Virus record (IMG/VR): IMGVR_UViG_3300038379_000522
Span: 1-56,034 of that record
DNA from: a virus
Lineage: Duplodnaviria > Caudoviricetes
Reading direction: 5' to 3' (one strand)
DNA: 56,034 nt
Part shown: in pieces, positions 1-56,034 of the stretch
How positions within the stretch are numbered: the first letter of the stretch is position 1
Layout: each line of letters begins with the position of its first letter
Position numbers and translations under genes: made by a program
Notes under the pieces: generated by a model
What the model saw: the letters and a program-made list of their open reading frames with translations, nothing else
What the model was told of the DNA's origin: nothing
Database searches by the model: none

Positions 1-200
1 TCACAGCACCCGCGCCAATTAAAATATTAGCACCAGGATTAGCTAAAGTACCGGATGGCAAGTGATGAAAACAGACGGTACCTTTAGGTGTCCACACTTT
101 GTGGCCAGCATTGGGGCCTCCAACACGAACTAAATAACGATATCTAGGAGCTATAAACGCAGAGATCTGACCCTTACCCTCAGAGCCGTACTGCCCACCC
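1..200. repeat. Terminal direct repeat copy 1 (circular assembly overlap)
   Basis: 1-200 matches 55835-56034 except G78 vs T55912; it falls inside a CDS. Confidence 0.97.
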
Positions 201-751
201 ACAAGCACATCAACGTTTTTACCTAAAGTTGGACCATTTATAAATCCAGATACTATAGTAACGACATCCTGTGGTGTACATTTTGTTGTATCAATAACGG
301 CATCAGCCACCTTGGCCAAAGATGAAGATGTTTCTATAACATGGGAGGATGCCTCTTCATATTCCAGTCCAACATCTTTGCTGGCGTCTCTACCTTGGAA
401 TCTGCTTCTAAGAACGCCAGGCAAAGCCGTAAGATGGATGTGCTTTATCATGTGTGAAGCACAAAAAACATTTCTGATGTGGGTGATTTGATCTAACGTT
501 CTTATAGCATCAATGATCATGGTGGGATAAGTCGGCAACTCCAACATTTTATTTGCTATCCAAGCACCACCCGTTTCTACATCTAATGCGCTGCCTGCCT
601 GCTGTAGAGCGTGCCTAGTGGCAGCGTCAGGGTAGGTCATTTTTACTAGTTGTGACGTTTGCAGCACGACACAGTTATCAAAAGCCGTTTGAAGAGCGAG
701 CGATAATGTTGATTTTCCAGATGCGATAGGCCCGGACAGCAGGACAATCAT
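1..751 (-). CDS. purZ: 5' part of P-loop nucleotide kinase-PurZ/PurZ0 fusion; continues across the circular junction into 55834..55005 (526 aa total)
   Basis: Manual translation from ATG at 751 (ATGA overlap with upstream ORF): MIVLLSGPIASGKSTL (Walker A)...MIIDAIR...KVADAVIDT...VDVLVGGQYGSEGKG...VRVGGPNAGH; open and in frame with ORF 55005..55931. Confidence 0.9.
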   Translation of the reverse strand, partial: MIVLLSGPIASGKSTLSLALQTAFDNCVVLQTSQLVKMTYPDAATRHALQQAGSALDVETGGAWIANKMLELPTYPTMIIDAIRTLDQITHIRNVFCASHMIKHIHLTALPGVLRSRFQGRDASKDVGLEYEEASSHVIETSSSLAKVADAVIDTTKCTPQDVVTIVSGFINGPTLGKNVDVLVGGQYGSEGKGQISAFIAPRYRYLVRVGGPNAGHKVWTPKGTVCFHHLPSGTLANPGANILIGAGAV

Positions 752-1002
752 GATATAACCTCATATACGCCGTAGTGCCAGCCATTAGGTTGGGGTGAAA
801 GGCCAGAAAAATTTACGAATACTAAACCACTAAATGTAATACTAGTGGGAGCGTTAGCATCGGTAAAAGCTAATTCTAATTTTCTTACACCGAAGTTAAC
901 GATGCGCATCTCATTAGATGCACTAGCTGGCCAACAACACGCGAAGCAGAGGTTTTTATAGCCAGGCAACAGCCCGACACCGCATGAAGCGCAACTGCTC
1001 AT
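748..1002 (-). CDS. Hypothetical protein with N-terminal CxxC...CxxC
   Basis: 84 aa; its stop overlaps the kinase-PurZ start codon (ATGA). Confidence 0.55.
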   Translation of the reverse strand: MSSCASCGVGLLPGYKNLCFACCWPASASNEMRIVNFGVRKLELAFTDANAPTSITFSGLVFVNFSGLSPQPNGWHYGVYEVIS

Positions 1003-2405: not shown

Positions 2406-2696
2406 TTAAAAAATCCTTTCAATGACAATAATACAGAGGCCATATTCCGTGTATCCAATGTCATTTTCTATTTTAACAGCATGGGCCATAGCTTCTACTA
2501 AGACAGTATGCACTGTAGCGTGTTTAAACATTTCTCGAGCATTAGCAATTTGTACATCAGAGTTATCTGATTTATAGGTGTTATTTTCCCATTCGAGATT
2601 ATCGATGGCCTGCAAGTGTTCCACCCTGTACTCCCATGCCCCAGCAATGGTGGGATGTAAAGTTTTCAGGATGTAGATGCCATTATCAGCGCTAAT
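2406..2696 (-). CDS. Hypothetical phage protein (SADNGIYIL type); probable start is a non-canonical ATT
   Basis: AGGAG RBS 8 nt upstream of ATT-AGC-GCT-GAT-AAT; the ORF track extends it to 2732. Confidence 0.6.
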   Translation of the reverse strand: MSADNGIYILKTLHPTIAGAWEYRVEHLQAIDNLEWENNTYKSDNSDVQIANAREMFKHATVHTVLVEAMAHAVKIENDIGYTEYGLCIIVIERIF

Positions 2697-2702
2697 AACT
2701 AT

Positions 2703-2829
2703 TGCTCCTGTGCTTGGAGCATTAAGGAACAAAACAGCAGGTAGGATTGAAGCTTCTATTCTCGTGTAGTCCTACTACACCAGTAGCATTATGGAAGCTT
2801 TAGTGCTACGTTCCCAATCCTACCTACTG
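2703..2829 (-). ncRNA. Candidate structured RNA / cis-regulatory leader
   Basis: Outer 15-bp stem 2735-2749/2815-2829, two inner hairpins, plus a hairpin at 2703-2721 covering the RBS. Confidence 0.45.
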
Positions 2830-3032
2830 AAATTTGAACTGATTATCCCTGCTCTTTTACACTTGCCGGTTCGAACTCAATACCGGCGTTCGTGAATGCA
2901 TCGCTGATTTCTTGCCAGGTATCCGAGTTTCATTCCTTACCGTCCATGGCCTCGGCAATATTCATCACTAAGTTAACGAGTTCATAGCCTAACATGAGCC
3001 TGATCTAATGCCTAAGTTCCTTGCGCATGGCT

Positions 3033-3278
3033 TCACTCCTTGATGGTACGAAGACAAATTTGACCTTCCATTGCTGTACCCGACGTGCGAAGACCAGAGC
3101 CGGATACGGAGTAAAAACCGACGTGCCGAATACCCTTAACGCTCGTACCCCTATACTCGATGCTTTCTATGGTGCGTTCGATCCAACGTGCATTCTCAAC
3201 GGGCTCACCCATATACGTATCAATTTGTTCCTTGGTAAGTGGAGTCCACTTTTTCGCGTCCATTGCCTTTTTTCCCAC
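3033..3278 (-). CDS. Hypothetical protein, first gene of the leftward early unit
   Basis: 81-aa ORF just downstream of a sigma54-type site. Confidence 0.5.
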   Translation of the reverse strand: MGKKAMDAKKWTPLTKEQIDTYMGEPVENARWIERTIESIEYRGTSVKGIRHVGFYSVSGSGLRTSGTAMEGQICLRTIKE

Positions 3279-3319
3279 GCTACTTTATTCCACTTTGATC
3301 AACCTATGCCTGGGATAAT

Positions 3320-3335
3320 TGCAAGATCAATGCCA
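3320..3335 (-). promoter_or_regulatory. sigma54 (-24/-12) type promoter
   Basis: Minus strand TGGCATTGATCTTGCA; GG and GC exactly 12 nt apart; intergenic. Confidence 0.6.
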
Positions 3336-3440
3336 ATACGGGAAGGGCTCCCAAGGCCATCAAGAAACTCCTTGAACATATCTATAGATGCACTCTGCAC
3401 GATTATAACATACAAACTGCAATTTTTAATAGTGGGGGTA

Positions 3441-3470
3441 TTTACAATAATACCGGTGTCGTGTTATACT
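3441..3470 (+). promoter_or_regulatory. sigma70-type promoter of the replication operon
   Basis: TTTACA-18 nt-TATACT with extended -10 TG. Confidence 0.5.
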
Positions 3471-3537
3471 GTCCAACTCAGTTAACTCCACAACGGAGTA
3501 AACAGGGAAAAAACGATACAAGGAGGAGATAGCAGGT

Positions 3538-3747
3538 ATGGCAAAGCTGAAGGCTCGGCAGACTATTGTGGATGATTTTGCGAAGATGGTTGAAAAAAAG
3601 CGGAAAGAGCTTAAACTCAGCCGACGTGGTTTGGCCAAGGCTACTGGCCTTACCAATCAAACCATCCGTAATGTGGAAAACGGCGCAGAGCCAAAGCTGT
3701 TTACCATTTATCGCTTAGAAAAGACACTAGGCGTACTTCGTGCTTAA
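3538..3747 (+). CDS. XRE/Cro-family HTH regulator
   Basis: RKELKLSRRGLAKATGLTNQTIRNVENG-EPKLFTIYRL; AGGAGG upstream. Confidence 0.88.
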   Translation: MAKLKARQTIVDDFAKMVEKKRKELKLSRRGLAKATGLTNQTIRNVENGAEPKLFTIYRLEKTLGVLRA

Positions 3748-5226
3748 ATGAGTCTGCCACCACGTTTTGAGCATCAAGAGCGGTGGTTAGAGAAAACATG
3801 GAATGTGCCCGGGCATGCCGTATTTTGGGACCCGGGCACAGGCAAATCCCGCTTCGCGTTAGATACGGCAAGTAAACTTTTCGATAACCGCAGAATAGAC
3901 GCAATGCTTGTGCTATCACCTAATGGTGTACACAGGCAATGGGTAAAAGACCAAATACCATTATTCTTAAGTAATGCAACAGGCTTTCTATATGAAACAG
4001 CCAAAGCCAAAACTATGCGCCACAAGACATATATGGCTAAGGCTATGGAAGCCAAGTTTCCTATAGTAGCCATGAGTTTTGATGGCATCATGACAGAACA
4101 AGGCGCTAGATGGGTAAAAAAGTTCTTAACTAAGCGCACTGTCCTGTACGTGCTGGATGAATCTACGGCCATTCAAACCATTAATGCCAAAAGAACGAAA
4201 CGCATCATAGCATCAGGCGTATACGCTCCTTATAAACGTGTCATGACTGGCACACCTGGTGAAAACCCATTTAAGTACTACCCACAAATCAAGTTCATAG
4301 ATCCCGGCTTCTGGCCAAGGCATGGCTTCGAGAGTTGGGACGTGTTTAAAGATTTCTTTGCTGTATGGATCAAGGCAACTACAAGAGTAAACGTTAAAGG
4401 TATCTCTGTTATACGAGAATATCCAACTATTGCGCTTGATGCACATGGCAGAAAGAAATATCGAAACTTAACAGAACTCAAAAAACTATTAACTATATGC
4501 TCATCCAGAGTTAAAAAATCCGAAGCTTTTGATCTTCCACCAAAGTTGTACACAAAGCGCTATTTCGATCCAACATCAGAACAACTAAGGGTTTATAAAG
4601 AGTTAGCCGATGAAGATCTTACATTTTTGCGCTCTGGCGAACTCATCACGGCTAGTGTCGCTATAACGAAATTACTGCGATATCAGCAGATTTTATCTAA
4701 CTACATTCCATACGAGTATGACACCACTGGCTCACCTATTAGATACATAGATAAGAAAAACCCACGTCTGGATTGTCTTATGGAAGCTGTTGAGGAGATC
4801 CCGCATCAAGGAATTATTTGGGCTAAGTTCTCTCATGACATTGATTTAATTATAGACAGATTAAGCCCAACACATACCTGCGTAAGGTTTGATGGCAAGG
4901 TATCCGAAGCTACCCGAGGAGTAAACAGGAATCGCTTCATGGTTGGAGACGCACAGTGGCTTGTTGGCAATCCAGAGGCCGGTGGTGTTGGGCTTAATTT
5001 GGATGTAGCACAAAGTGTGATATATTATAATAATTCCTTTAAATTACAAACTAGAATACAATCGGAGGATAGGCCACACAGAGCAACAACAAAACACGCA
5101 ATCAATTATACAGATATCGTGGCAGACGGCACAGTAGACGTGCACATCTTAAGAAGCCTGTTAAGCGGAATGGACGTATTTTCGACTATAACGGGTGATG
5201 ACTTAAAGGAATGGATTAGCTTGTGA
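3748..5226 (+). CDS. SNF2-family (SF2) DNA helicase
   Basis: DPGTGKS, VLDES, MTGTP, GGVGLNL, QSEDRPHR motifs. Confidence 0.92.
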   Translation: MSLPPRFEHQERWLEKTWNVPGHAVFWDPGTGKSRFALDTASKLFDNRRIDAMLVLSPNGVHRQWVKDQIPLFLSNATGFLYETAKAKTMRHKTYMAKAMEAKFPIVAMSFDGIMTEQGARWVKKFLTKRTVLYVLDESTAIQTINAKRTKRIIASGVYAPYKRVMTGTPGENPFKYYPQIKFIDPGFWPRHGFESWDVFKDFFAVWIKATTRVNVKGISVIREYPTIALDAHGRKKYRNLTELKKLLTICSSRVKKSEAFDLPPKLYTKRYFDPTSEQLRVYKELADEDLTFLRSGELITASVAITKLLRYQQILSNYIPYEYDTTGSPIRYIDKKNPRLDCLMEAVEEIPHQGIIWAKFSHDIDLIIDRLSPTHTCVRFDGKVSEATRGVNRNRFMVGDAQWLVGNPEAGGVGLNLDVAQSVIYYNNSFKLQTRIQSEDRPHRATTKHAINYTDIVADGTVDVHILRSLLSGMDVFSTITGDDLKEWISL

Positions 5227-5723
5227 AAGACGTTAAAGAGTTAGTCAAACTAGCTAAAATGGATATAGCAGCTTCAATCAGGGTTGCTAATGCAGAAGAG
5301 GAACTAAAGAAAGCAAAAGCAGCGCTTGCCAATGTGCGAGAGCGAATGATACCGGAGTTGATGGATGAGCTAGAGATTGACAACATAGAGCATGGCGGGT
5401 TTAAAATAACCATGGACACTAAGATACATACGCACGTGTCCGATGAAAGACGTGATGCCGCCATGGCCTGGTTGCGTAAGCATGGCCTTATGAAGATCAT
5501 TCGGCATGAAATAAAGGTTCTTCCTTCCACGGCTGAAGACGTTAGAAAAACGATAGAGAATTTAGATAAACTTGGTGTGGATTACAAAGAAATTCCCACC
5601 GTTCACCACTCCACACTGAAGAGTGTAATCAGATCGAGACTAGAAGGAGGTAAAGATGTCCCGGTCGAACTCTTCGGATATTACGAACAACGAATAGCTA
5701 AGGTCCAACCAACGGAGAGATGA
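5223..5723 (+). CDS. Conserved hypothetical protein of the replication module
   Basis: 166 aa, overlap-coupled to both neighbours; AMAWLRKHG, VHHSTLKS. Confidence 0.8.
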   Translation: MKDVKELVKLAKMDIAASIRVANAEEELKKAKAALANVRERMIPELMDELEIDNIEHGGFKITMDTKIHTHVSDERRDAAMAWLRKHGLMKIIRHEIKVLPSTAEDVRKTIENLDKLGVDYKEIPTVHHSTLKSVIRSRLEGGKDVPVELFGYYEQRIAKVQPTER

Positions 5724-6493
5724 AAATGGCCACCAAAGCTGGAAAACCCACAACTCAAAAGACAACTGTATCTACGAATGTGGATTTCTCAGATTACCAA
5801 GGTATGGGATTTGAAAACCAAACGTCCGATGACGTTCTTATTCCATTTCTAAATGTTCTACAGTCAAACTCACCAGAAGTCGATGACGTTACGGGTGCTA
5901 AGCCCGGCATGTTATATAACACGGCTTCTGGTAAGTTATATACTGAACTTGTATTTGTCCCGTGCCTAACGCAGCACTCGTTTGTCGAATGGCGTCCTAG
6001 GGATGCGGGCGGTGGCTTTGTGAATCGCCACGGCATCCATGATCCTATCGTATTAGAAGCAAAGGCTAATGCGGAGAGGTTTGGCAAGAACAAAACGCCT
6101 AATGGCAATGACCTAGTAGAAACGTTCTACATATATGGCATTTATGAGGAAGGCCAAGAATTCGAGCCTTTCATTCTGTCTTGTTCGTCGACCAAGATTT
6201 CGGCATATAAAGCTATTAATTACAAATGGCGTAAGTTCAAGCTTAATGGTGCTAAGGTCCCCTTGTTTGCCAACTTGACCAAGATTTCAACGGTTAAGGA
6301 CGAAAACCAATACGGTAAATTCTTCAATATTAATCTGTCTCCGGCTCGTGGTGATGATTTGGAGTCTTCATTCATCACACCCGATACTCCGATATTTAAA
6401 GCCGGCATGGAACTCTACAAGATGGTAGAGTCCGGACGAGCAAAGCCTGGTGAGCAGGGTCAGGAGTTTGCCGATGATGCCGGGCCATTCTAG
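5720..6493 (+). CDS. Putative ssDNA-binding / recombination protein
   Basis: Position in replication module; acidic SSB-like C-terminus EFADDAGPF. Confidence 0.6.
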   Translation: MKMATKAGKPTTQKTTVSTNVDFSDYQGMGFENQTSDDVLIPFLNVLQSNSPEVDDVTGAKPGMLYNTASGKLYTELVFVPCLTQHSFVEWRPRDAGGGFVNRHGIHDPIVLEAKANAERFGKNKTPNGNDLVETFYIYGIYEEGQEFEPFILSCSSTKISAYKAINYKWRKFKLNGAKVPLFANLTKISTVKDENQYGKFFNINLSPARGDDLESSFITPDTPIFKAGMELYKMVESGRAKPGEQGQEFADDAGPF

Positions 6494-16653: not shown

Positions 16654-16851
16654 TTGACGCAAAAAACATTTATATCAATCACACACCACATGCAAACTGC
16701 AGGTGTGTACAAAGCTACGGCCGAATACCCAGAGTTCAACCTATCTGCAGAAGGATATGGACACACTAAACAAAAAGCCATACAAGTAGCCCTTTATAGG
16801 CTGTATCGAGCAGTGGTTGATAATGCAGAAAAGGTTAAACTCAATGTTTGA
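16654..16851 (+). CDS. Hypothetical protein
   Basis: GAGGAGG upstream, TTG start, 65 aa. Confidence 0.55.
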   Translation: MTQKTFISITHHMQTAGVYKATAEYPEFNLSAEGYGHTKQKAIQVALYRLYRAVVDNAEKVKLNV

Positions 16852-17254
16852 CGACTTTCGCTGCCCAAAATGCGGAGAACCTGTGCAGGCTCACTGTCCA
16901 AAAATGCATTGGACTGGTAGCATTAATGACTGCGGTATTGACCGTTTCAACTCTAATAACCTTTGTGAAAGGGCCTTAGCCTTTCATGGTGTCCAAAAGC
17001 AACTTAACCACTGTGCGGAGGAGTCTGCCGAGTTTATTTTGGCTTTGGCGAAGGTACAACGTTTTGAGCTATTAGATAGACCCATGTCAAAAAGGTTCTG
17101 TGATCTTGTGGAGGAGACAGCCGATTTAACAATCATGATGGCCCAAGCAAGAATAGCACTAGGTCGAGAGCGCGTAGATCGAGTAATCGAAATGAAAATG
17201 CAAAGACTATCTGAAGAACTAGACCACGAAATAGAGAAGATCAATCCCCATTAA
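16844..17254 (+). CDS. MazG-like NTP pyrophosphohydrolase with N-terminal CxxC
   Basis: AEESAEF...LVEETADL acidic helix pairs; KMQRL C-terminal motif. Confidence 0.8.
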   Translation: MFDDFRCPKCGEPVQAHCPKMHWTGSINDCGIDRFNSNNLCERALAFHGVQKQLNHCAEESAEFILALAKVQRFELLDRPMSKRFCDLVEETADLTIMMAQARIALGRERVDRVIEMKMQRLSEELDHEIEKINPH

Positions 17255-41595: not shown

Positions 41596-41796
41596 TCACT
41601 CAGCTTTTACTTCCTCGAACTTAATGCCATTATCACCCGGCACATTCTCTCTATGGTCAACGGTACCATCAAGAATGTCTCTAGGTATACCATCAAGATA
41701 GGCTTTACAACCCCATTCATATAGCTTATGCTTACACCTAGAACATATACCTATAGTTTTTACATCTCCTTTCTGCCACGCAAAGCGCTTTCTCAT
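41596..41796 (-). CDS. Small Cys/His protein directly after MuF-ART (candidate immunity or partner)
   Basis: CSRCKH...CKAYLDGIP...DH; ATGA coupling. Confidence 0.7.
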   Translation of the reverse strand: MRKRFAWQKGDVKTIGICSRCKHKLYEWGCKAYLDGIPRDILDGTVDHRENVPGDNGIKFEEVKAE

Positions 41797-43667
41797 ATAA
41801 GTTCCACCTCTAACGTGTAAACATCAACATCGATCGTTACATCTTGCGTGAAATCTTTTACAGCTCGAGTGCCTGATTTGAAAACGCCCGTAATACGGAA
41901 GCTACGACCTCTATTTAAAAGTATCTCAGCTTCATCACCATACGCAGGCATAACAATAGCTCTCGTACCTTCAGGCACTCTGATACGGAAATTATATATA
42001 GCACCGGCTTCCGACACCTGATTTATACCGAAGTTCCAAACACCCTTGCCCATAGATGTAGATACGAAAGCTTTATCATTAAAGGCCAGCCCTGCTTTGG
42101 GTATGACATCTCCAAAAATCTCTTTAGCTGTACCACCATCTAAAAACGCTGTTCTATACACATATATATCTCTTTCCAAAGCGGCAGAATTATCAAACGC
42201 AGCATCTATATCATCTATAAAGCCCTTGTGTTTAGATAAAGTGCCACCGCCCCTAAGCTGTGCATTAATTATTTCGAACTGCTGGCCCTGATAACTCTTT
42301 AACGTATTGTGCTGCTCTTTAGTTATATTAGGACTGTTACGCTTCCAAACATCATACTGCACAGCATGTTTATCATTAAGTTTATCACCTTTAAGATTCC
42401 CGTAGTCAATAGGCGGGTCTTCGGTATGTTTAACGCGCGGTTTTGCTCTGGTTTTTAGTGCTTTTGGCTCTATAACAAGCGAACTGTGCCTTTGCTTTAA
42501 TTGCTTTAGCGTAAGTTCCTGCCCTTGCCTGTCTACGAAGGTATCTAACTTTGCGCCTTTCCTGAATAATTCAGCCTTCCCTTTCCCGAGTACGTTATCC
42601 TGAAATGCGATAGGCTGACGTCTTAACCATTCATCATAGTTAACGGTGGCCGGCACCGATCCTATATTATCTCTAGCCCATTGCCGCTTGAGGTCACTAA
42701 CTAACTCTTGTCTTTCACGCGGGCTTAACTCTTTCCACTTATTTCCAGCTTTTTCTTTAGCTTCTGTTCTAAAATCTAGCTCTCTCATACGACGAGTTCT
42801 AGTATCACGGACAAACGGCCTATCAGGAATAATATTTGCTATCCCATCAGCATCTAAAACTAAAGTTCGGTTTGATCTACAACCAGTGTGGGCAGGTGGT
42901 CTTGCAGTAGGTGGATGTAACTTTGGCGTTAATGTCAGAGGCTTATCACCAACGGGGGCAAAATGGCCATCTCTTGCTCTACAAATTGCAGATGTCCTAC
43001 CATCTAATGTAGAATTCCATCGATAAGCTTGCGCTATATCAAGGTTCTCATTAAAAAATAAATCTCTCGAGGCATCTGATACGTGATTTGTTGCTGTACG
43101 CACGATAGCTTCAGCATTTATGCGAGCCATGCCTGTGCTCTTTCTTACACGGCGTACTACCTGATCAATCGTCTCATTCTGTGCATTACCAAGTTGTATA
43201 GCATCAAGAATACGAGATTGATCGACCTTTTCAAGTTTACTCCACCAATCAGCTAAAGTATTTGCAGCATTGGCCCCACCAGCAAAAGGCTGTGTTCGCA
43301 CAATGGCCGACAATGCATCCGTGGATACAACTGCATATTCAAGGGACACCGGCATCACAGCATCCATAATGTTCTTTATAAATGTCTGCTCTGCCTTGGC
43401 TAAATCTATAAAATCATCACGGGTTCGTGATTTAATACTAGAGAACAATTCTTTTCGAAGAACCTTAATGTCGTCACGAAGTTTCTTCATGCGCTCAGTT
43501 GTAAACGTTTCGCCTCTAGGCAAACGCTCTCTAAGCATAGCCTCAAGTTCTTTATCGGACTTTTCCAGCAGACTCAATATAGCCTGAAACTCACCGCCAC
43601 CAAGCCTTCTTAAACCAATTTGATGACGAGTTAAGGCATCAAAAAGATTTTCATTAGCCGTCGCCAT
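41793..43667 (-). CDS. MuF (SPP1 gp7-like) head morphogenesis protein fused to a VIP2-like ADP-ribosyltransferase
   Basis: IVRTATNH, STLDGRTSAICRARDG, PPAHTGCRS; C-terminal INAQLR, VYR, FVSTS, EAEILL. Confidence 0.88.
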   Translation of the reverse strand: MATANENLFDALTRHQIGLRRLGGGEFQAILSLLEKSDKELEAMLRERLPRGETFTTERMKKLRDDIKVLRKELFSSIKSRTRDDFIDLAKAEQTFIKNIMDAVMPVSLEYAVVSTDALSAIVRTQPFAGGANAANTLADWWSKLEKVDQSRILDAIQLGNAQNETIDQVVRRVRKSTGMARINAEAIVRTATNHVSDASRDLFFNENLDIAQAYRWNSTLDGRTSAICRARDGHFAPVGDKPLTLTPKLHPPTARPPAHTGCRSNRTLVLDADGIANIIPDRPFVRDTRTRRMRELDFRTEAKEKAGNKWKELSPRERQELVSDLKRQWARDNIGSVPATVNYDEWLRRQPIAFQDNVLGKGKAELFRKGAKLDTFVDRQGQELTLKQLKQRHSSLVIEPKALKTRAKPRVKHTEDPPIDYGNLKGDKLNDKHAVQYDVWKRNSPNITKEQHNTLKSYQGQQFEIINAQLRGGGTLSKHKGFIDDIDAAFDNSAALERDIYVYRTAFLDGGTAKEIFGDVIPKAGLAFNDKAFVSTSMGKGVWNFGINQVSEAGAIYNFRIRVPEGTRAIVMPAYGDEAEILLNRGRSFRITGVFKSGTRAVKDFTQDVTIDVDVYTLEVELI

Positions 43668-43852: not shown

Positions 43853-45327
43853 TACCGCCTGTCCGTCTCTATTTCATTATCCAGATCAGGTGGCTCACCA
43901 AACAAATTCATAGCTTCTTCTTCAATAATGGCTGCATCTCTATCAGCATTAAAATCTTCCGACAAAATACCACGACGCTTGTACTCTCCAATAAGAGCCT
44001 CTCTACTAATATCACGCATCATACGTGCGGACTTAAGGGCATCAATATCAGCGGAGTTCGTTTCGTTAAAACTGTAGTTCGTATTGATAGTTACCTTGGC
44101 TTCACCTAGCTCTACATTCATCCACTTAGCAGTAATAACCAAACACTGCTCAAGTGCATCAGTGAACCGTTGTACATTATCCTGCAATGGACTAATGGCC
44201 TCCGCAGAGTTTAAAGCTCTAGCCGTTGCAGTCTGTGCACCAGGTTGTTTCTTCAGAAATTGTGCACCATATTCTGACATCTCATCCTTAAGAGACTCTA
44301 GATCCTTGCGTCCAGCCTCAATAGCAGCACCCGTGTGTTCAACATAATAAAACTTGCTTTGTGAGTCTGGCGACCAAAGCCACTTATTAGGACCAATAAC
44401 AAGCTTACCTTCGTCAGATCCACCACTAAGGGCAAGGATAGGAAAACGTGCGGTAGTTAGGATAGCCCTTTGTTCAGATGTAGATTGCCAATGTGCAATG
44501 TTCAAATTGGCAAGATCTTCTAGAGGAGACTCAGCCAGCATAAACCCGCACCGTCTACTATAAAATGTAACAAGTGGAATAATATCTAAATCATATGGGT
44601 AGCTATCAACCATCTTCCAAATGGGCTTACCGTGCGTATTCTTTTTCTTAAAACGCCTATATAACTCAACCCAACCACGGTTAACACCATTTTCATTTCT
44701 CAGGTATACACGCCGGATTTGCGGCTCAGATGTCTCTACCATTCCATTACGACCAGTAACCTCCTCCATAATACGGATTTCCCTAAGAATCTCACGGCCA
44801 CCAACGACCTCCGCATCAGCAAAGAAAAGTTGTTCTGGTTCTATCTGCACCCAATAGGGGCGCAGACCATCCGCACTATCATCAAGCAGTGATCTATTTT
44901 CTGCGGACACTACTCTGGGGTAATCAATAAATGTGTGACTTAACCCTTTGGATAAGCCACTAGAAAACCATTCTCTAGAAAAAACGTCAACATCATTCCC
45001 TTGCAGATCGACATCAGGCAAGACATTATCTTCGATCTCCTTCGGGACATCTTCAAATACAAGTGGCTTAGAGAACGGACGGCCTACCCAACCTTCTAAG
45101 GTAAGCTTAGTCATATTAAGCAAAGTTGCCTGATTTAATCTCTCCTGATAAGCACCCTCAGATTCTTCAACGTGCTGTGGTAGGTACACTTTACCAGCTG
45201 CCCGCATAGCTCTTGTTCCACCCAGCACCGTTGCCATCTTTCTCCAGTTAGGCAACATATAGTCATAGGCGGCACTTGTAGTTGAAGGATCTTTAGGGTC
45301 CTTTTCAGCAGGCATGCTATACCTCAC
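43852..45327 (-). CDS. Portal protein (DUF4055-like)
   Basis: GGTRAMRAAGKVYLP, LEDLANLNIAHWQS, TATA; synteny. Confidence 0.9.
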   Translation of the reverse strand: MRYSMPAEKDPKDPSTTSAAYDYMLPNWRKMATVLGGTRAMRAAGKVYLPQHVEESEGAYQERLNQATLLNMTKLTLEGWVGRPFSKPLVFEDVPKEIEDNVLPDVDLQGNDVDVFSREWFSSGLSKGLSHTFIDYPRVVSAENRSLLDDSADGLRPYWVQIEPEQLFFADAEVVGGREILREIRIMEEVTGRNGMVETSEPQIRRVYLRNENGVNRGWVELYRRFKKKNTHGKPIWKMVDSYPYDLDIIPLVTFYSRRCGFMLAESPLEDLANLNIAHWQSTSEQRAILTTARFPILALSGGSDEGKLVIGPNKWLWSPDSQSKFYYVEHTGAAIEAGRKDLESLKDEMSEYGAQFLKKQPGAQTATARALNSAEAISPLQDNVQRFTDALEQCLVITAKWMNVELGEAKVTINTNYSFNETNSADIDALKSARMMRDISREALIGEYKRRGILSEDFNADRDAAIIEEEAMNLFGEPPDLDNEIETDRR

Positions 45328-45781
45328 TTATCTCCCAGCGACTAAAATCAAAGTTAGATGCTTTATTTGCAATGTCCAACATATCTAATAGCTTATCTTG
45401 TTCATAATACAATAAAGCGTCTCTGTACATAAGTTCTGATTTAAAGTTATTTCCATCCAGGAGTACAGCCGTTCGTTTTCCAATCCCTTGTGCATAGCCA
45501 AGTTCCCAATGCGCAGAGGCTCCAGCAGGTTGTACAAGTATTGTGATATCAGCTTCTCTAATAAGGCTAACCGTCCTTACATATGATATATACGCTGCAC
45601 CATTCATGTCTCTCATACGAACGATCCAATCGGCCGGCCCATCAAGATTCCCAAAAACCTCCTCATCTGTAACACCAGAGCCTTTAAAATCCAAAGCTTT
45701 AATCCCCAGTGCACGAAGTGCCTCGAGTAGCTCAGTATGCTTCGGATTAGACCAGCGTGTAGCCAAATAAACTGAAATCAC
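45317..45781 (-). CDS. Nucleoside 2-deoxyribosyltransferase / dNMP N-glycosidase family protein
   Basis: VYLA N-terminal strand; ADITILVQPAGASAHWELGYAQGIGK signature. Confidence 0.8.
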   Translation of the reverse strand: MISVYLATRWSNPKHTELLEALRALGIKALDFKGSGVTDEEVFGNLDGPADWIVRMRDMNGAAYISYVRTVSLIREADITILVQPAGASAHWELGYAQGIGKRTAVLLDGNNFKSELMYRDALLYYEQDKLLDMLDIANKASNFDFSRWEISEV

Positions 45782-50983: not shown

Positions 50984-52060
50984 CTAAGTCATATTTACGC
51001 CCTCCCATGTGCCCATATTAATAAGGAACGACGGGACCAAGAAGGCCAAACATCCTTTGCCGATTGGATCGTTTGAAATAAAACGAATTAAAGTCGGGTT
51101 TTCGTTTTGAATGTCAACTACCAATGTACCTGCCGAGTACTTACGAACGAAGGATGAACCTTCAGTTCTAGTTTGTTCCATTGGTGATGACAAATCCCAT
51201 AAAGGAATGGTGTCTTTAAATCCCAATAAAGGTAACTTCTCAGCAGGGTTCATAACCGTGTACCAAGTATCCCACAACGCAGCGGCAGCGTAACCTTCTA
51301 CAAGTGGTGTAGTGGTATTTTGCTTTACAACCGTGTACAAGCCACCATCCTTTGCGTACCTATGAGAATCTAGGATGGATCTTTTGTTAATACCAACGGC
51401 ATCATTTACCCAACTACCACGTAGCCCAAAATCTTCTACTAACCGCCCATTGCTAGGATCGCAGTCTCCAACCAGACCATCGGAGCCCACAATAATTATA
51501 GGCTCAGGCAGCAAGGCTCGTAATCTAGGTAGAAAATCACTGCATGCAGAAGTCCAAGCTGCAGAGAACTCATCCCAAGGCTTTGCTAATTGTACTCCCT
51601 CAGGGAAGAAACCGGGCCAAGGCTTAATAAAGGAGCCTAATTCAATGGTAAACCCATCACAGTCTTCTAGCTGCAAATACCAAGAGTCTTTCATCCTATT
51701 TAATAGCCAGCCAACATTAGCTTGACTAGAACAGTCTATCCAGCCATGGCCATAAGACCTTTGTTCATCAAATACAACAGAGCCTTTTTTATCACGAAGG
51801 ATCTGTGGAATACCCCACCCCTTTTCGTGACGCATGGGGTTCCAATCGCTGTACTCCGTTCCTTTGGGTACAAGCTGAGGCATCCAAGGAAAAAAGATTT
51901 TGAGGTCGGGATTAAAACTCTTCATCTGCTTACGAATGGATGGAGTCTCAATACAAACGAAACCATCATAGGACGTTGCTAGAATTTCTTTTTCTTGTTC
52001 TGTGTATTCCCACCATCTTTTAGGCAGGAGCTTCGTATACAATAACAATTTAGGTTTCAT
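50984..52060 (-). CDS. Putative glycoside hydrolase-like protein (GHL15-like TIM barrel)
   Basis: DGF, NGRLVEDF, C-terminal DLSSP...FVRKYSAGTLVVD pattern; recognised by eye only. Confidence 0.5.
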   Translation of the reverse strand: MKPKLLLYTKLLPKRWWEYTEQEKEILATSYDGFVCIETPSIRKQMKSFNPDLKIFFPWMPQLVPKGTEYSDWNPMRHEKGWGIPQILRDKKGSVVFDEQRSYGHGWIDCSSQANVGWLLNRMKDSWYLQLEDCDGFTIELGSFIKPWPGFFPEGVQLAKPWDEFSAAWTSACSDFLPRLRALLPEPIIIVGSDGLVGDCDPSNGRLVEDFGLRGSWVNDAVGINKRSILDSHRYAKDGGLYTVVKQNTTTPLVEGYAAAALWDTWYTVMNPAEKLPLLGFKDTIPLWDLSSPMEQTRTEGSSFVRKYSAGTLVVDIQNENPTLIRFISNDPIGKGCLAFLVPSFLINMGTWEGVNMT

Positions 52061-52195
52061 TCATCCTCTCCCATGATATACCAAGGTTTTATTTCGGGTC
52101 AGGCTCTTTCACAATAATGTTATTATATAATAAACACTCATGCTCTGTCTGATGACAGTCGGCCGGTTCATGATGACGCAACCTCTTACAATGAA

Positions 52196-54814
52196 TCACT
52201 CATGGGGCGGCCCGGCATTTTTATCTTCCTCATATTTGTACACAGAATCTGGACCAGCCTGTGTGGCTGGCCATGTCACGATCACATACTTCCAATCATC
52301 CCCCACATTAGGACAAAATATTGAGTCTCCTTTTGCTGCATATCCATTGTAAAAACCAGGAGAATCCGGGCCATGGTACCAGGCACCTTGTACAGATGGG
52401 CCGCCATCACGCACAATGCGCCATTGATAAGCCGTTGTATCATAAGTAGCTACAGTTAAAAAACGGTCAATACGGGGTGGCGGCGGGGGCGGTGTAACTG
52501 CACCTTGTGCCAATCTTACTATACCTCCGTTTTCAACGGTGAAATAACCAACCCCATTTTCATTTACATCAAACACACCTTCTTCAGTCTCAGTTTCCCA
52601 CACATAAGAACCAGGTTCTAGATCCGCAACAAAATTGCTGGATTCTGACATAATGCCTAAATCATAAATGACTTCAACATCTAGCTCTTCATCCTCAGAG
52701 AACACAAGAACCCTGGTAGCCCTTTCTTCATAAATCGTAATACCAATTCTGCCATCATTCACATGTGGTAACAATTCGACAATTACAGGATCTCGGCTCT
52801 TGTCAGTAAGCTCATAGACGTGCGGGATTGTATATTCAGTTTCACCAGTCACCCTGATCTCCGACCGCCAGAACCCAGCCCAACCACTATCAATAACCTT
52901 TCTCTCCTCCGCACCACTCACGTACTGCGTATCATATGGAATGTTTTCACCAGTATCCGGGTGAATAAATTCATAAGAATCTCGTTTGTTCCACTCACCA
53001 CTTGCGGATTTCCCACCAAGACGCCAAATCTCCAAATAGCCATCATATAAAACGCTTGCATGAACTCTCGAGTTATCACGACTCCACGTGTAGGATTTGT
53101 CTAGTGTATATTGGCCAGGAGTGCCGCCATGTGCGTTAGGCGGTGTGCCACCATCCCACTTTCCACCCTCATAAAGACTGAAGCCATCCGATGATGGACA
53201 ATGCATGACAATGGCAACCTTAGCCGTTGGTCTCAGGGTACTAATCCTGTCTATGTTCACCACAAAGCGGCCGGCAACAAGACAGATTGAACGTGTTACA
53301 TTTTTCACTATAGCGCCATTTGGCCATTGAGAAGGTTTAACTGTGTTTGGGTAAAGAAGCGTACAATTCATATGTGCATACTGTACACCACCGCCTATAA
53401 CAAATTTATCAATAAAACCTACCTCATAATCTGATTGAAAAGGCCCAGTCGGCGTATCAAGATCAGGTGCCGACGGGGGCACTTGACCACGAGACTGTTG
53501 ACCACCTGGCTTGTATGGCGTACTGGGATCTGAAATCAGAATAGTATTTTCTGATATGGGGCTAGAATGGTACTTAAAATGAGGTTTTGCAGTTCCATCA
53601 TACACACCTGTGGATGCACTCAAGATCGTTTTGCCACGAAAAAAAGCATGGTGGGAAGAAGCGTATACATGACCAGGGAAAATAGGGCCTCCAGGAAGTA
53701 GCGTTACAACTACGGTAGAATCATTATCATAGTTGAAAGATGACCTCATATAAGCATAACGGCTATTGCCGCCATCTCTACGCGTTAAATCACCAAAGTA
53801 TTTGCCTAAAGGCAAATTGGTAGGTGCTTTTCGTGGTAATGACCTATCTTCTACTAGAATCCGCCAATAATGAGCAGATGAATTGCCAGCAGCTGTGGCC
53901 TTATCAATCCACCATAAAGCCTCTGGGTTTTTGGTCGGGAGTGCGAAATCCACGAAAGTAGTATGTAGTTCCGCTAAATCGTGATTGTCTCCTACCTCAT
54001 CGCTTTCAAACCATCCGGGTCTAGTCGCGTACATACCCCATATACCAATCATTTCTAGATGGTTGGCATACTGTACAAAAGGCTCATCATTCGTTGCATT
54101 ATCCCATGCAACAGCTGTGACCATATCCTCCCAAGGTCTTTCCCATCTGTAGCCGGAATATGTACCGCAATAATTTAATGCTCGAGCCTTAAAGTCGTTT
54201 TGCACATGCCTATAAGCAACGTTCAAACGGCGATCGAAATCAGGATCCGATATTTCGCCATGAATAGCAAGTAAAGTGCAGAATGCACTGCCGGCTATCC
54301 AGGGGTATTTGTAATAGTTTTTATACTCAAGATCCTGTAAAACGCCAAAACTGCCAGTTGTGATGTCGTAGAGCCATTGTTCTACTTCATCCTTTATAGG
54401 CAAAAAAGCTGGATCATTATATAAAACATCATAAGCGTGTACGAACCCTGACCACGTAGCATCCTCCCCATAGTGGCTGTATTGGATAATGGCATGGTCC
54501 TTGCATACGGTGAGCCAATCAATCAGCAAATCTCTGTACGTTGTATTGCCAGTGATGAAATAGGCTGTAGCTAGGTTATTCAACTTTTTGGAGTAACCAC
54601 GCACCATAGACTGGTTCCAAGCACCGGTCGTCGGTCTATCACTTGATCCGTATCTTTGAACTTCGGAAGTTACCTTGGCCCATTCTGTTGCGTGTGTGCT
54701 AGTGACTCGGGCACGGATGGATGGTGTAGTTTCTTGTGTGGCAAAGATACGAGGATGCTCTGACAAAATGGCTAATGACATGAGTAGTGCTTTTATCATT
54801 TCATGAGTCTCCAT
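52196..54814 (-). CDS. Putative polysaccharide lyase (DUF4962 / heparinase II-III-like), probably exported
   Basis: Signal-like MIKALLMSLAIL, HPRIF, helical N-half, YMRSS, TGVYD, ENTILISD, poly-Pro linker. Confidence 0.6.
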   Translation of the reverse strand: METHEMIKALLMSLAILSEHPRIFATQETTPSIRARVTSTHATEWAKVTSEVQRYGSSDRPTTGAWNQSMVRGYSKKLNNLATAYFITGNTTYRDLLIDWLTVCKDHAIIQYSHYGEDATWSGFVHAYDVLYNDPAFLPIKDEVEQWLYDITTGSFGVLQDLEYKNYYKYPWIAGSAFCTLLAIHGEISDPDFDRRLNVAYRHVQNDFKARALNYCGTYSGYRWERPWEDMVTAVAWDNATNDEPFVQYANHLEMIGIWGMYATRPGWFESDEVGDNHDLAELHTTFVDFALPTKNPEALWWIDKATAAGNSSAHYWRILVEDRSLPRKAPTNLPLGKYFGDLTRRDGGNSRYAYMRSSFNYDNDSTVVVTLLPGGPIFPGHVYASSHHAFFRGKTILSASTGVYDGTAKPHFKYHSSPISENTILISDPSTPYKPGGQQSRGQVPPSAPDLDTPTGPFQSDYEVGFIDKFVIGGGVQYAHMNCTLLYPNTVKPSQWPNGAIVKNVTRSICLVAGRFVVNIDRISTLRPTAKVAIVMHCPSSDGFSLYEGGKWDGGTPPNAHGGTPGQYTLDKSYTWSRDNSRVHASVLYDGYLEIWRLGGKSASGEWNKRDSYEFIHPDTGENIPYDTQYVSGAEERKVIDSGWAGFWRSEIRVTGETEYTIPHVYELTDKSRDPVIVELLPHVNDGRIGITIYEERATRVLVFSEDEELDVEVIYDLGIMSESSNFVADLEPGSYVWETETEEGVFDVNENGVGYFTVENGGIVRLAQGAVTPPPPPPRIDRFLTVATYDTTAYQWRIVRDGGPSVQGAWYHGPDSPGFYNGYAAKGDSIFCPNVGDDWKYVIVTWPATQAGPDSVYKYEEDKNAGPPHE

Positions 54815-55004: not shown

Positions 55005-56034
55005 TTACCATTTCCTAAGATCAATCACTCCTTCCCTATGGAACATTGTTGAAATGAGACTGACAGGAACACCTGTAGCTATCTCTATTGTTTCAATGAA
55101 ACGAATCGTATCCATAGACAGATCTGATAACCGGCGTGCACCGGCATTATTCTTGTCAATATAATCTACAAAGGTAAGTGCGATGTCTGTTGGCCCGTTT
55201 AATTGGCAAGACTTATGAAGTTGCACCCAATCAAACTCTGCAATACGACGGCGAAGCTTGGTAGTGGATGTCGTCTCCGTTTTCTCGAGTACGGCGACAT
55301 CTATACCTGTGTTTCTAGCAACGTGCTGCAAATCGATTTCTTGTTCCATTGGGCCAGATGTACTGCCTTCGGGAGACTTTACGCGGATAGGATGTGTACG
55401 ACATACCATAATTACTTTATTTACCCTATGTGGCGGAATACCGGCATCTGATAACGTTCCAGATGCTGTTGTATCACGGCTAGTAACGTAAGGGTAATGG
55501 CCATGATGAATACTGAGGGACGTCCCTTGTGTACCTTCCAAAAGTACCTTATGGCCATGGTAATATGCGCTGCCCAAAAGCACTTGGATAGGAGTTATGA
55601 ATGGTTTTAATTTCGGGTGATCTTTAGCTAATACGACATCTGGGGATGCTGCTGTACGTAAGATCTTCCTGGATGTAGCTCTACCAACACCTTGCCCCGT
55701 AGAACCTATGGATGACACAAGGGCCTTTTCGTATTTTATATCATCATTATCAATGATGATGGCGTTAGGATCTATACTAAGACGATGCTCAACATTAAAT
55801 TCTGCTACTTCTTCCAAGAATGAGTTAACATTGATCACAGCACCCGCGCCAATTAAAATATTAGCACCAGGATTAGCTAAAGTACCGGATGGCAAGTGAT
55901 GAAAACAGACGTTACCTTTAGGTGTCCACACTTTGTGGCCAGCATTGGGGCCTCCAACACGAACTAAATAACGATATCTAGGAGCTATAAACGCAGAGAT
56001 CTGACCCTTACCCTCAGAGCCGTACTGCCCACCC
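55005..56034 (-). CDS. purZ: 3' part (PurZ/PurZ0 catalytic domain) of the kinase-PurZ fusion
   Basis: GGQYGSEGKG, NAGH, HHLPSG, IGSTGQGVG, LLEGTQG, YPYVTSRD, RTHPIRV, ETTSTTKLRRR, LTFVDY. Confidence 0.92.
   Translation of the reverse strand, partial: GGQYGSEGKGQISAFIAPRYRYLVRVGGPNAGHKVWTPKGNVCFHHLPSGTLANPGANILIGAGAVINVNSFLEEVAEFNVEHRLSIDPNAIIIDNDDIKYEKALVSSIGSTGQGVGRATSRKILRTAASPDVVLAKDHPKLKPFITPIQVLLGSAYYHGHKVLLEGTQGTSLSIHHGHYPYVTSRDTTASGTLSDAGIPPHRVNKVIMVCRTHPIRVKSPEGSTSGPMEQEIDLQHVARNTGIDVAVLEKTETTSTTKLRRRIAEFDWVQLHKSCQLNGPTDIALTFVDYIDKNNAGARRLSDLSMDTIRFIETIEIATGVPVSLISTMFHREGVIDLRKW
55835..56034. repeat. Terminal direct repeat copy 2
   Basis: Matches 1-200. Confidence 0.97.

Follow-up and report, generated by a model that had tools for sequence, protein, structure and literature searches.

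A kinase-fused, Ser-type adenylosuccinate synthetase homologue in a tailed phage and its large, mainly cellular family linked to ADP-ribosylation genes

Does a phage gene that joins a PurZ-like synthetase to a nucleotide kinase mark a genome in which 2-aminoadenine (Z) replaces adenine? The question was raised by a 56,034-nt stretch of viral DNA (Duplodnaviria; Caudoviricetes), IMG/VR record IMGVR_UViG_3300038379_000522, which we analysed over its whole length and call the window. An initial annotation of this stretch had joined its two ends, had found there a 526-aa open reading frame (ORF), and had proposed that the product is a PurZ with a built-in dZMP kinase belonging to a Z-genome phage. 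To our knowledge, the 2-aminoadenine synthetases described so far (PurZ and PurZ0) are stand-alone, phage-borne enzymes accompanied by dATP/dGTP-hydrolysing partners. We found that the fusion gene and its junction are real. Together with its relatives the phage protein forms a fourth, separate and strongly supported branch of the Ser-type synthetases (those with Ser in place of the catalytic Asp13 of adenylosuccinate synthetase, PurA), beside PurZ and PurZ0; the fusion family is large, mainly cellular and not special to this phage.

The fusion ORF across the contig ends

Positions 1–200 of the window recur at 55835–56034 with a single mismatch (G at 78, T at 55912). The duplicate reflects overlapping ends in the assembly of a genome that is circular or circularly permuted, and the circular unit therefore measures 55,834 nt. 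In the window circularised by script, with either variant of the overlap, one minus-strand frame stays open for 526 aa. It begins with the ATG at 751–749, leaves the left end of the window after codons 1–250 and one further base (1–751), resumes at 55834 with the rest of codon 251 (55005–55834) and ends at the stop codon at 55005–55007. Depending on the variant, the synthetase domain has Thr or Asn at the mismatched codon. Homologues whose genes are not interrupted can be aligned with the joined protein over its full length: P0002 (530 aa, from a 59-kb contig; 54.4% identity over residues 1–526) and P0095, encoded on a 6.4-Mb chromosome (48.1% identity).

The junction was also found in Logan contigs of run X1, a freshwater metagenome. 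One contig of 55,864 nt contains positions 1–1500 of the window at its positions 2680–4179; a second assembler thus puts 2.7 kb ahead of window base 1, and the sequence therefore carries on past the left end of the window. The length of this contig equals the 55,834-nt circle plus 30 bases, and at window position 78 the contig has T and thus codes for Asn. No public run other than X1 has the sequence, and the evidence from it consists of contigs; the run is possibly the source sample, so the bridging is shown but is not sample-independent. IMG/VR classes the record as linear, with a CheckV completeness of 88%; the single overlap mismatch probably hid the terminal repeat from the linear/circular call. 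The linear record, its completeness value and the mismatch are what could be said for an assembly artefact, in which the two halves were never contiguous and no fusion ORF exists in nature, but this is hardly credible given that another assembler's contig crosses the left end and fits the size of the circle, that unsplit homologues align end to end, and that 108 of the 120 best synthetase-domain homologues are 485–589 aa long (94 of these 108 with a Walker A motif in the first 40 residues).

The frame proposed across the ends thus stands, and so does the placement of its motifs, all on the minus strand: the Walker A motif GPIASGKST (aa 7–15; 707–733), the phosphate loop GSEGKG (aa 189–194; 170–187) and KLRRR (aa 443–447; 55245–55259). 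The NTP-base pocket TFVD is found at aa 471–474 (55164–55175).

The two domains and their place among Ser-type synthetases

The synthetase-like domain begins at aa ∼180 (its first part occupies positions 1–214, minus strand). Its assignment was borne out by matches of the C-terminal 342 aa to Pfam PF00709 Adenylsucc_synt (E 1.3e-54) and to phrog_1211 (E 7.4e-68). The best PDB sequence match was the short archaeal PurA of Pyrococcus (Pyrococcus horikoshii, 2D7U/5K7X; E 6e-50 over 340 residues); further matches were phiVC8 PurZ (6FM1, 8.5e-36), S-2L PurZ (7ODX, 4e-32) and the PurZ0 structure 7VF6 (1.5e-25).

The residue at the Asp13 column (S-2L S23) separates the family from housekeeping PurA, in agreement with the initial annotation. 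Ser was found there in 80/80 fusions from genomes, 6/6 viral fusions and 70/70 stand-alone viral homologues, whereas 6/6 housekeeping PurA have Asp; among the 120 best database homologues, 118 have the phosphate-loop Ser and the other two were not matched by the pattern. The accessible part of PMC12884076 gives Asp13 as 99% conserved in true PurA, and bioRxiv 2025.10.22.683976, as far as accessible, reports that S14D destroys selectivity. In the aligned columns Ser is shared by 5/5 PurZ, by PurZ0, by 34/34 fusions and by the window. The column of S-2L T273 has Gly in PurA and Thr in PurZ, in PurZ0, in 32/34 fusions and in the window; S23, T273 and Q308 are described as PurZ-specific substrate contacts in the accessible part of PMC8342488. 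The pocket at S-2L 305–308 reads T-K-L-D in PurA, N-F-x-N/Q in PurZ, T-M-L-D in PurZ0, T-F-V/A-D in the fusions and T-F-V-D in the window, with the Asp of PurA and PurZ0 and the Phe of PurZ. Since the guanine-binding Asp is retained in 34/34 fusions, the phosphate donor is probably GTP, and the nucleotide pocket of the family and of the window is of the GTP type. H52, Q190, R240-V241 and R280-R281 (S-2L numbering) are retained too; the phage copy has kept every catalytic residue of both domains.

The loss of the 2′-OH-binding Arg303, which the initial annotation had taken as a second mark of PurZ, was seen but proved to be less telling. The alignment to E. coli PurA proposed there held against Pyrococcus PurA, phiVC8 PurZ and bacterial PurA, and Leu indeed occupies the position equivalent to E. 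coli PurA Arg303, phiVC8 K267 and S-2L L278, as in S-2L PurZ. By sequence alignment, however, the column is not uniform in PurZ (three Leu, one Lys, one Arg) and holds Lys in 4/4 PurZ0, Arg in PurA, and 26 Arg, six Lys, one Leu and one Asn in the fusions. Leu was found only in the window and P0002, both among the 35 fusion rows of our tree and among the 120 best homologues. According to the accessible part of PMC8342488, Arg303 contacts the 2′-O of IMP, while its PurZ counterparts (S-2L R244, phiVC8 K267) are too distant for the 2′-O, that is, displaced rather than lost.

A tree of 86 rows was built with IQ-TREE, as a quick tree and as one with 1000 ultrafast bootstraps. The fusions were represented by the window, P0002, five viral fusions, L119b and 27 of the 80 genome fusions (22 chosen at random plus named ones); the stand-alone viral genes by 35 sequences, each standing for one 70%-identity cluster of the 62 distinct homologues; and the references by five PurZ, four PurZ0, the sequence of Bacillus phage vB_BpsS-140 and housekeeping PurA from four bacteria and two archaea. 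All 80 Ser-type rows split off from archaeal PurA with an SH-aLRT of 100 in the quick tree. The synthetase domain of the window belongs with the Ser-type sequences and not with housekeeping PurA. The PurZ clade (100/100), the PurZ0 clade (the four references, 97/93) and the clade of the fusions and the window (100/100) were all recovered, with the window outside both of the former; within its clade the nearest neighbour of the window is P0002 (100/98), and viral contig L006 joins next (98/99).

Many stand-alone Ser-type PurZ-like genes were also noted in IMG/VR viral contigs (L011–L084), with 30–42% identity to the window and at least one clade apart from the PurZ and PurZ0 references. In the quick tree the fusion clade has four of these genes (L051, L053, L054 and L057) as its sister group, with an SH-aLRT of 92.

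PurZ0 is reportedly a GTP-dependent succino-amino-deoxyadenylate synthase (work said to be by Tong et al., 2023), exemplified by the enzyme of Gordonia phage Archimedes, PDB 7VF6. The window protein resembles it in the short archaeal-type AdSS (adenylosuccinate synthetase) fold, in Ser at Asp13, in Thr at T273 and in the guanine-binding Asp, but has only ∼30% identity to it, lies in a separate clade, has Phe where PurZ0 has Met in the T-x-x-D pocket, carries a fused N-terminal kinase and has no DutZ/DmtZ neighbour. With the ATP/dATP-dependent PurZ of phiVC8 and S-2L it shares the Ser and Thr signature, Phe at S-2L F306 and the Lys-Leu pair of S-2L K277-L278; the adenine-type pocket of PurZ is not present, and neither are DatZ and MazZ. 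Archaeal PurA shares its length class and GTP pocket, but not the Ser, and in the tree it is placed outside the Ser-type sequences. From housekeeping PurA in general the window protein, although it has a PF00709 domain, differs by the absence of Asp13 and by scores below the equivalog cut-offs.

The N-terminal 179 aa contain the P-loop domain (aa 1 to ∼175; 227–751, minus strand) that had been called NMP-kinase-like. Sequence searches with it gave little: Pfam AAA_18/AAA_33 matched below threshold (E about 1e-5; AAA_18 26.0 against 29.4 bits), a search of the PDB returned a chance match only (E 0.15), and tblastn against 50,697 GenBank phage records found no match to the kinase domain and no synthetase closer than 35% identity. 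An AF2 model of the domain from 55 sequences (pLDDT 91.6) had its top structural match in 3LW7, a Sulfolobus adenylate-kinase-related protein with bound AMP (Z 19.2, rmsd 2.5 over 162 residues, TM 0.76–0.80), which is stand-alone, 18% identical and given no function in its PDB title; phosphomevalonate kinase (Z 16.4) and adenylate and uridylate kinases (Z 14.7) came next. The domain thus has an NMP-kinase fold, with core, NMP-binding and lid parts and a Walker A motif, in accordance with the first reading. G7, G12, K13, W64, Q88, R93, H104, H106 and D150 are invariant or nearly so in the 55 sequences, the window included.

The kinase profile found 4,269 clusters among 1.84 billion representatives at E up to 1e-3. 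The best 150 of these included 12 full fusions and 37 truncated fusions with the Ser loop, and of 28 shorter ones inspected at their ends several stop in or before the inter-domain linker; the kinase subfamily is therefore essentially confined to fusions. In architecture the fusions recall the anti-phage dCTP deaminase, which likewise has an N-terminal P-loop kinase-like domain followed by a nucleotide-converting enzyme, although the catalytic domain is a different one. The profile matches to that system are weak: the kinase part of P0030 against the kinase part of the PADLOC dCTPase gave E 1.2e-7, and family members against the kinase part of the NCBIfam anti-phage deaminase model gave E 5.7e-4. 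PADLOC had no match for the two pieces of the window protein and only weak VakA and dCTPase matches for homologues.

In viral contig L010 we also noted a stand-alone kinase paralogue (5412–5993, plus strand; 30% identity over 170 aa to the kinase of the window) directly upstream of a fusion that is followed by a DUF7002 gene, a family described below.

The cellular family and its ADP-ribosylation cassette

That the fusion would be a phage speciality was not upheld by our survey. A relative is encoded in the genomes of at least 585 species of bacteria and archaea (585 of 600 stretches, with one genome per prokaryotic species). The best 80 genome loci, which were inspected for gene order, have 44–51% identity and represent numerous phyla of bacteria as well as archaea (Nitrosopumilus, Cenarchaeum). 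Cultured carriers in the scan include Paraburkholderia aspalathi LMG 27731, Roseibium suaedae DSM 22153 and Corallococcus llansteffanensis CA051B. Several homologues lie on contigs of 0.5–6.4 Mb, and a separate housekeeping PurA, with Asp, is also present in 5/5 cellular carriers tested.

The fusion gene is accompanied by two recurrent partners. A gene of ∼225 aa lies directly downstream of it in 65/80 loci and encodes a DUF7002 protein (E about 1e-62 to 1e-66). A gene of ∼460 aa, usually directly upstream, is present in 67/80 loci; its product combines an M78 domain of the IrrE/ImmA type (Pfam E about 1e-10; IrrE 2e-11, CapP 5e-10) with a C-terminal macrodomain, which a profile of 56 sequences matched to 2AFC/2FG1/5E3B (E 3.6e-49) and also to ALC1 and TARG1/OARD1. 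The DUF7002 model (pLDDT 96.5) had DarT1 with NAD+ as its top fold match (E 5.5e-4, TM 0.40–0.44), followed by DarTG, the catalytic chains of pertussis and cholera toxins, and Tpt1; at these modest scores, the predicted structure argues for an ADP-ribosyltransferase (ART) fold. A search of the protein cluster database with DUF7002 returned DUF7002 clusters only.

The invariant residues of DUF7002 (H22, F111-F112-W113 and E196) correspond to the motifs Hxx / FFW / xxE given for the DarT-like Lmac_3114 family (PMC12522546, accessible part), and the cassette is therefore the same one. An AdSS next to a DarT-like ART is thus already published: in the accessible part of that paper (BMC Genomics 2025) 60% of cases have an AdSS domain adjoining the Lmac_3114 ART, joined in Pseudomonas aeruginosa by an AAA domain. 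The partner is regarded there as an AdSS of the ordinary kind, adjusting the supply of purines or of NAD; the Ser substitution, the relationship to PurZ, the macrodomain-M78 partner and phage copies are not mentioned in that part of the text.

ORF clustering showed that the outer flanks vary between the 80 loci. Recurrent outer neighbours are phage-type integrases (seven loci), the type I restriction genes HsdR (five) and HsdS (four), ResIII helicases (four) and dCTP-deaminase-like genes (five). The three genes, coding for a putative M78 protease-macrodomain protein, the fusion and a DUF7002 ART, give the picture of a mobile conflict cassette. Other arrangements exist: in L098, L103 and L131 (Myxococcota) a HerA/FtsK-like ATPase of ∼720–750 aa upstream replaces the M78-macrodomain gene and no DUF7002 follows. 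Two fusions, L095 and L130, were seen in longer ORFs (757 and 844 aa) with no separate DUF7002 directly downstream; they may hold extra fused domains.

The window shares with this family the fusion architecture (526 aa) and the clade, whereas the flanking partners are missing, so that the phage has the enzyme without the ART. Hidden Markov models of both cassette partners found nothing in the window, and DUF7002 had no match there at E up to 1. Solo copies are also present in unrelated viral contigs, and are confined to a few metagenomic contigs. In the related viral contig L005 the fusion lies in a replication module, in the order DEAD helicase, DnaB-like helicase, fusion, primase, Cpn10 and UDG-PolA.

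Possible roles of the phage copy and what they would mean

The window is a real tailed phage, with genes for the small and large terminase subunits (TerS, TerL), portal, major capsid protein and tail proteins, and it also encodes SNF2, a RecD-like helicase, PolA, a primase and an exonuclease. The fusion is inside a phage operon: its ATG overlaps by 4 nt the stop of an upstream 84-aa ORF (748–1002, minus strand), with which it is translationally coupled in the same transcription unit.

Several other genes of the window were noted. An 872-aa protein with a poly-Pro stretch near its C-terminus and a 358-aa protein are encoded directly downstream of the fusion (50984–54814, minus strand); these two and eight replication-side ORFs had no Pfam or PHROG match. 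Two adjacent genes of the Pam3 gp33-like (DUF7307, E 4e-26) and Pam3 gp34-like (E 1e-56) types lie between the SNF2 and RecD-like helicases (5223–6493, plus strand). Residues ∼400–600 of a 624-aa head-morphogenesis protein (41793–43667, minus strand) match Alt-like/exoenzyme-type ART PHROGs (E 5.5e-12 and 4.2e-7), which suggests that the phage may package an ADP-ribosyltransferase of its own.

We tentatively favour the explanation that the phage captured its fusion from the large cellular family and that the enzyme is a guanylate-aspartate ligase of the PurZ0-like, GTP-dependent kind to which a kinase is coupled; the direction of the capture, from cells to phage, is probable rather than certain. 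In the C-terminal domain GTP would phosphorylate O6 of a guanine mononucleotide and aspartate would then replace the phosphate, which is PurZ0-type chemistry. In the phage copy dGMP would be favoured because the Arg that contacts the 2′-OH is replaced by Leu. Host PurB would then yield (d)ZMP, and the fused kinase would phosphorylate a nucleotide of the same route, in the simplest case (d)ZMP to (d)ZDP or GDP to GTP. The net effect in infection would be conversion of guanine to 2-aminoadenine nucleotides, with at least some Z entering new DNA. The parts of this explanation differ in strength. Action on a guanine nucleotide is quite probable. Use of dGMP, with some Z ending up in the DNA, is possible, if slightly doubtful. 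A largely Z-substituted genome seems unlikely; complete replacement of A by Z is unsupported because there is no recognisable dATP-removing enzyme. A kinase that regenerates GTP or supplies substrate is as plausible as a dZMP kinase.

A number of observations weigh against the explanation we favour. The scores of the window under NCBIfam models fall short of all cut-offs: archaeal AdSS, the best-scoring model, gave 276.4 bits (NF003295; cut-off 368), TIGR00184 gave 218 (395) and PurZ gave 196.6 (NF038379; 300). With the last score, and with the window placed by the tree in neither the PurZ nor the PurZ0 clade, the identification as PurZ was not upheld. At the 2′-OH position most of the 120 best homologues have Arg (90) or Lys (25), and the Leu of the phage copy is weak evidence of deoxynucleotide preference because the dGMP-using PurZ0 has Lys there. 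A dZMP kinase is possible but not favoured because the step after PurB does not adjoin that of the synthetase. As the clade is mostly cellular and linked to ADP-ribosylation, the Ser signature alone is no sign of a Z genome. Substrate and product are read from residues, and the enzyme might in truth act on a ribonucleotide or on another compound altogether. The Z-cluster is toxic in E. coli according to the accessible part of PMC8342488; a constitutive cellular Z pathway is therefore unlikely, and a conflict role is indicated for the family.

The companions expected of a Z genome are missing as well. The phage has no homologue of DatZ, MazZ, DutZ, DmtZ, DUF550/DUF5664 or PurB; even at a threshold of E 1, Pfam showed no HD, dUTPase, MazG or Lyase_1 domain in the window; and phmmer searches with DatZ/MazZ of S-2L, gp51 and DmtZ-DutZ of Wayne, and DatZ and DUF5664-DUF550 of SH-Ab found the polymerase only. 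The same queries served as a control: a DmtZ-DutZ homologue was found within 6 kb of 52/74 stand-alone viral PurZ-like loci, compared with 0/6 viral fusion loci and none in the window. The accessible part of PMC12884076 gives dutZ in 98/98 PurZ0 genomes; dmtZ often accompanies PurZ0 too. Of the claim of a Z-genome phage, the Ser/Thr/Leu signature was thus retained, while the accessory enzymes were not found and the polymerase is not of the DpoZ clade.

The main rival of a captured guanylate-aspartate ligase is a role in conflict with no change to the phage's own bases, the phage having taken one component of the ART/macrodomain cassette for counter-defence or for phage exclusion. The mobile three-gene cassette with its partner frequencies, the DarT1/DarTG-like fold of DUF7002, the macrodomain and the IrrE/CapP-like part of its neighbour, the nearby integrases, HsdR, HsdS and dCTP-deaminase-like genes, the weak likeness of the P0030 kinase part to that of the anti-phage deaminase and the solo copies in unrelated viral contigs all speak for such a role. 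We nevertheless judge it improbable: the function of the cassette is putative and no PADLOC model matches the window protein, the phage copy retains all catalytic residues in both domains, and the position in the replication module of L005 suits nucleotide supply better.

Equally improbable in our view is complete Z substitution (a ZTGC phage), with a PurZ that brings a dZMP kinase of its own and with dATP cleared by two non-orthologous proteins. Two candidates for that function are encoded in the window. A 154-aa ORF between the portal and TerL genes (45317–45781, minus strand) matches phrog_12607, nucleoside deoxyribosyltransferase (NDT; E 6.5e-15), with a Pfam NDT match below the cut-off (E 1.2e-4); it has no homology to Wayne DmtZ by phmmer, and its relatives are in Mycobacterium phages and in Rhizobium phage RR1-B. 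A 145-aa ORF (16817–17254, plus strand) matches phrog_2245, nucleoside triphosphate pyrophosphohydrolase (NTP-PPase; E 5.3e-17), without a Pfam MazG match; its sole cultured-phage relative is in Halobacterium phage phiH. NDT and NTP-pyrophosphohydrolase are functional classes tied to Z synthesis (accessible parts of PMC12884076 and bioRxiv 2025.10.22.683976), those of DmtZ and of DutZ/MazZ, and convergent, non-orthologous solutions in Z phages are reported in the former. The Ser and Thr signature, Leu at the Arg303-equivalent and the NMP-kinase fold would also fit. So would the polymerase, inasmuch as S-2L shows DpoZ to be dispensable (PMC10201439, accessible part). Against these stand the lack of homology of both proteins to S-2L DatZ/MazZ, Wayne DmtZ-DutZ and SH-Ab DUF5664-DUF550, their location away from the fusion, and the hosts of their relatives, which are absent from the 10 commonest host names listed for 219 PurZ-like-bearing records; the missing HD, dUTPase and MazG matches and the mainly cellular make-up of the fusion clade count against a ZTGC phage as well. 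The PolA of the window has its best PDB match in 7PBK, the phiVC8 DpoZ (E 3e-47), but its nearest phage relatives, at 48–49% identity, are PaMx11, Ab18, Epa5 and Bordetella FP1/CN1. The polymerases of phiJL001-like ATGC phages closely resemble DpoZ too (PMC10201439, in its accessible part), and in view of these two facts we dropped the DpoZ likeness of PolA as evidence of Z.

A more far-reaching account, which we regard as more doubtful still than either of these, would deny that PurZ-type chemistry was invented by phages. A cellular GTP-dependent, kinase-linked guanylate-aspartate ligase in a DarT-like conflict cassette would share one origin with the Z-genome synthetases of phages, and the window and P0002 would represent a fresh solo capture. 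In cells 2-aminoadenine nucleotides could then be made on demand as a possible poison for the replicating DNA of an invader, or could offer extra 2-amino-purine targets to an ART of the guanine-N2 type; in the phage copy the change from Arg to Leu would mark a shift to deoxynucleotides, an intermediate toward a Z genome.

An ordinary purine gene, that is, an IMP-using AdSS with an adenylate-kinase-like domain that yields more AMP and ADP, is very improbable: the Pyrococcus PurA and archaeal AdSS models as top matches, the GTP-type pocket and the AMP-bound best fold match of the kinase agree with it, but Ser throughout the fusion family at a position where true PurA has Asp, Thr at the PurZ-specific T273 position, the separate PurA of cellular carriers and the score under the AdSS cut-off do not.

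In the literature that we found there is no kinase-PurZ fusion and no PurZ-like enzyme in ART cassettes, although supplements may hold related data. A kinase-fused Ser-type clade beside PurZ and PurZ0, its M78-macrodomain partner and solo phage copies with Arg changed to Leu were likewise undescribed there; DUF7002 did not occur by name, and for adenylosuccinate synthetase in anti-phage defence there was nothing relevant. The accessible part of PMC12884076 places four archaeal Ser/Gly sequences basal to PurZ and PurZ0, and these may already include members of the fusion family.

What makes this fourth Ser-type branch unusual is that it is always kinase-fused, is found in at least 585 bacterial and archaeal species genomes and is tied to ADP-ribosylation genes; in cells the fusion is surrounded by integrases and restriction genes. 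If guanine nucleotides are indeed converted to 2-aminoadenine nucleotides, cellular conflict systems would include Z nucleotides, one could test directly where PurZ came from, and the Ser13 signature alone would no longer be enough to call Z genomes in metagenomes. Should the activity be a different one, the enzyme would still be a new enzymatic partner for DarT-like systems.

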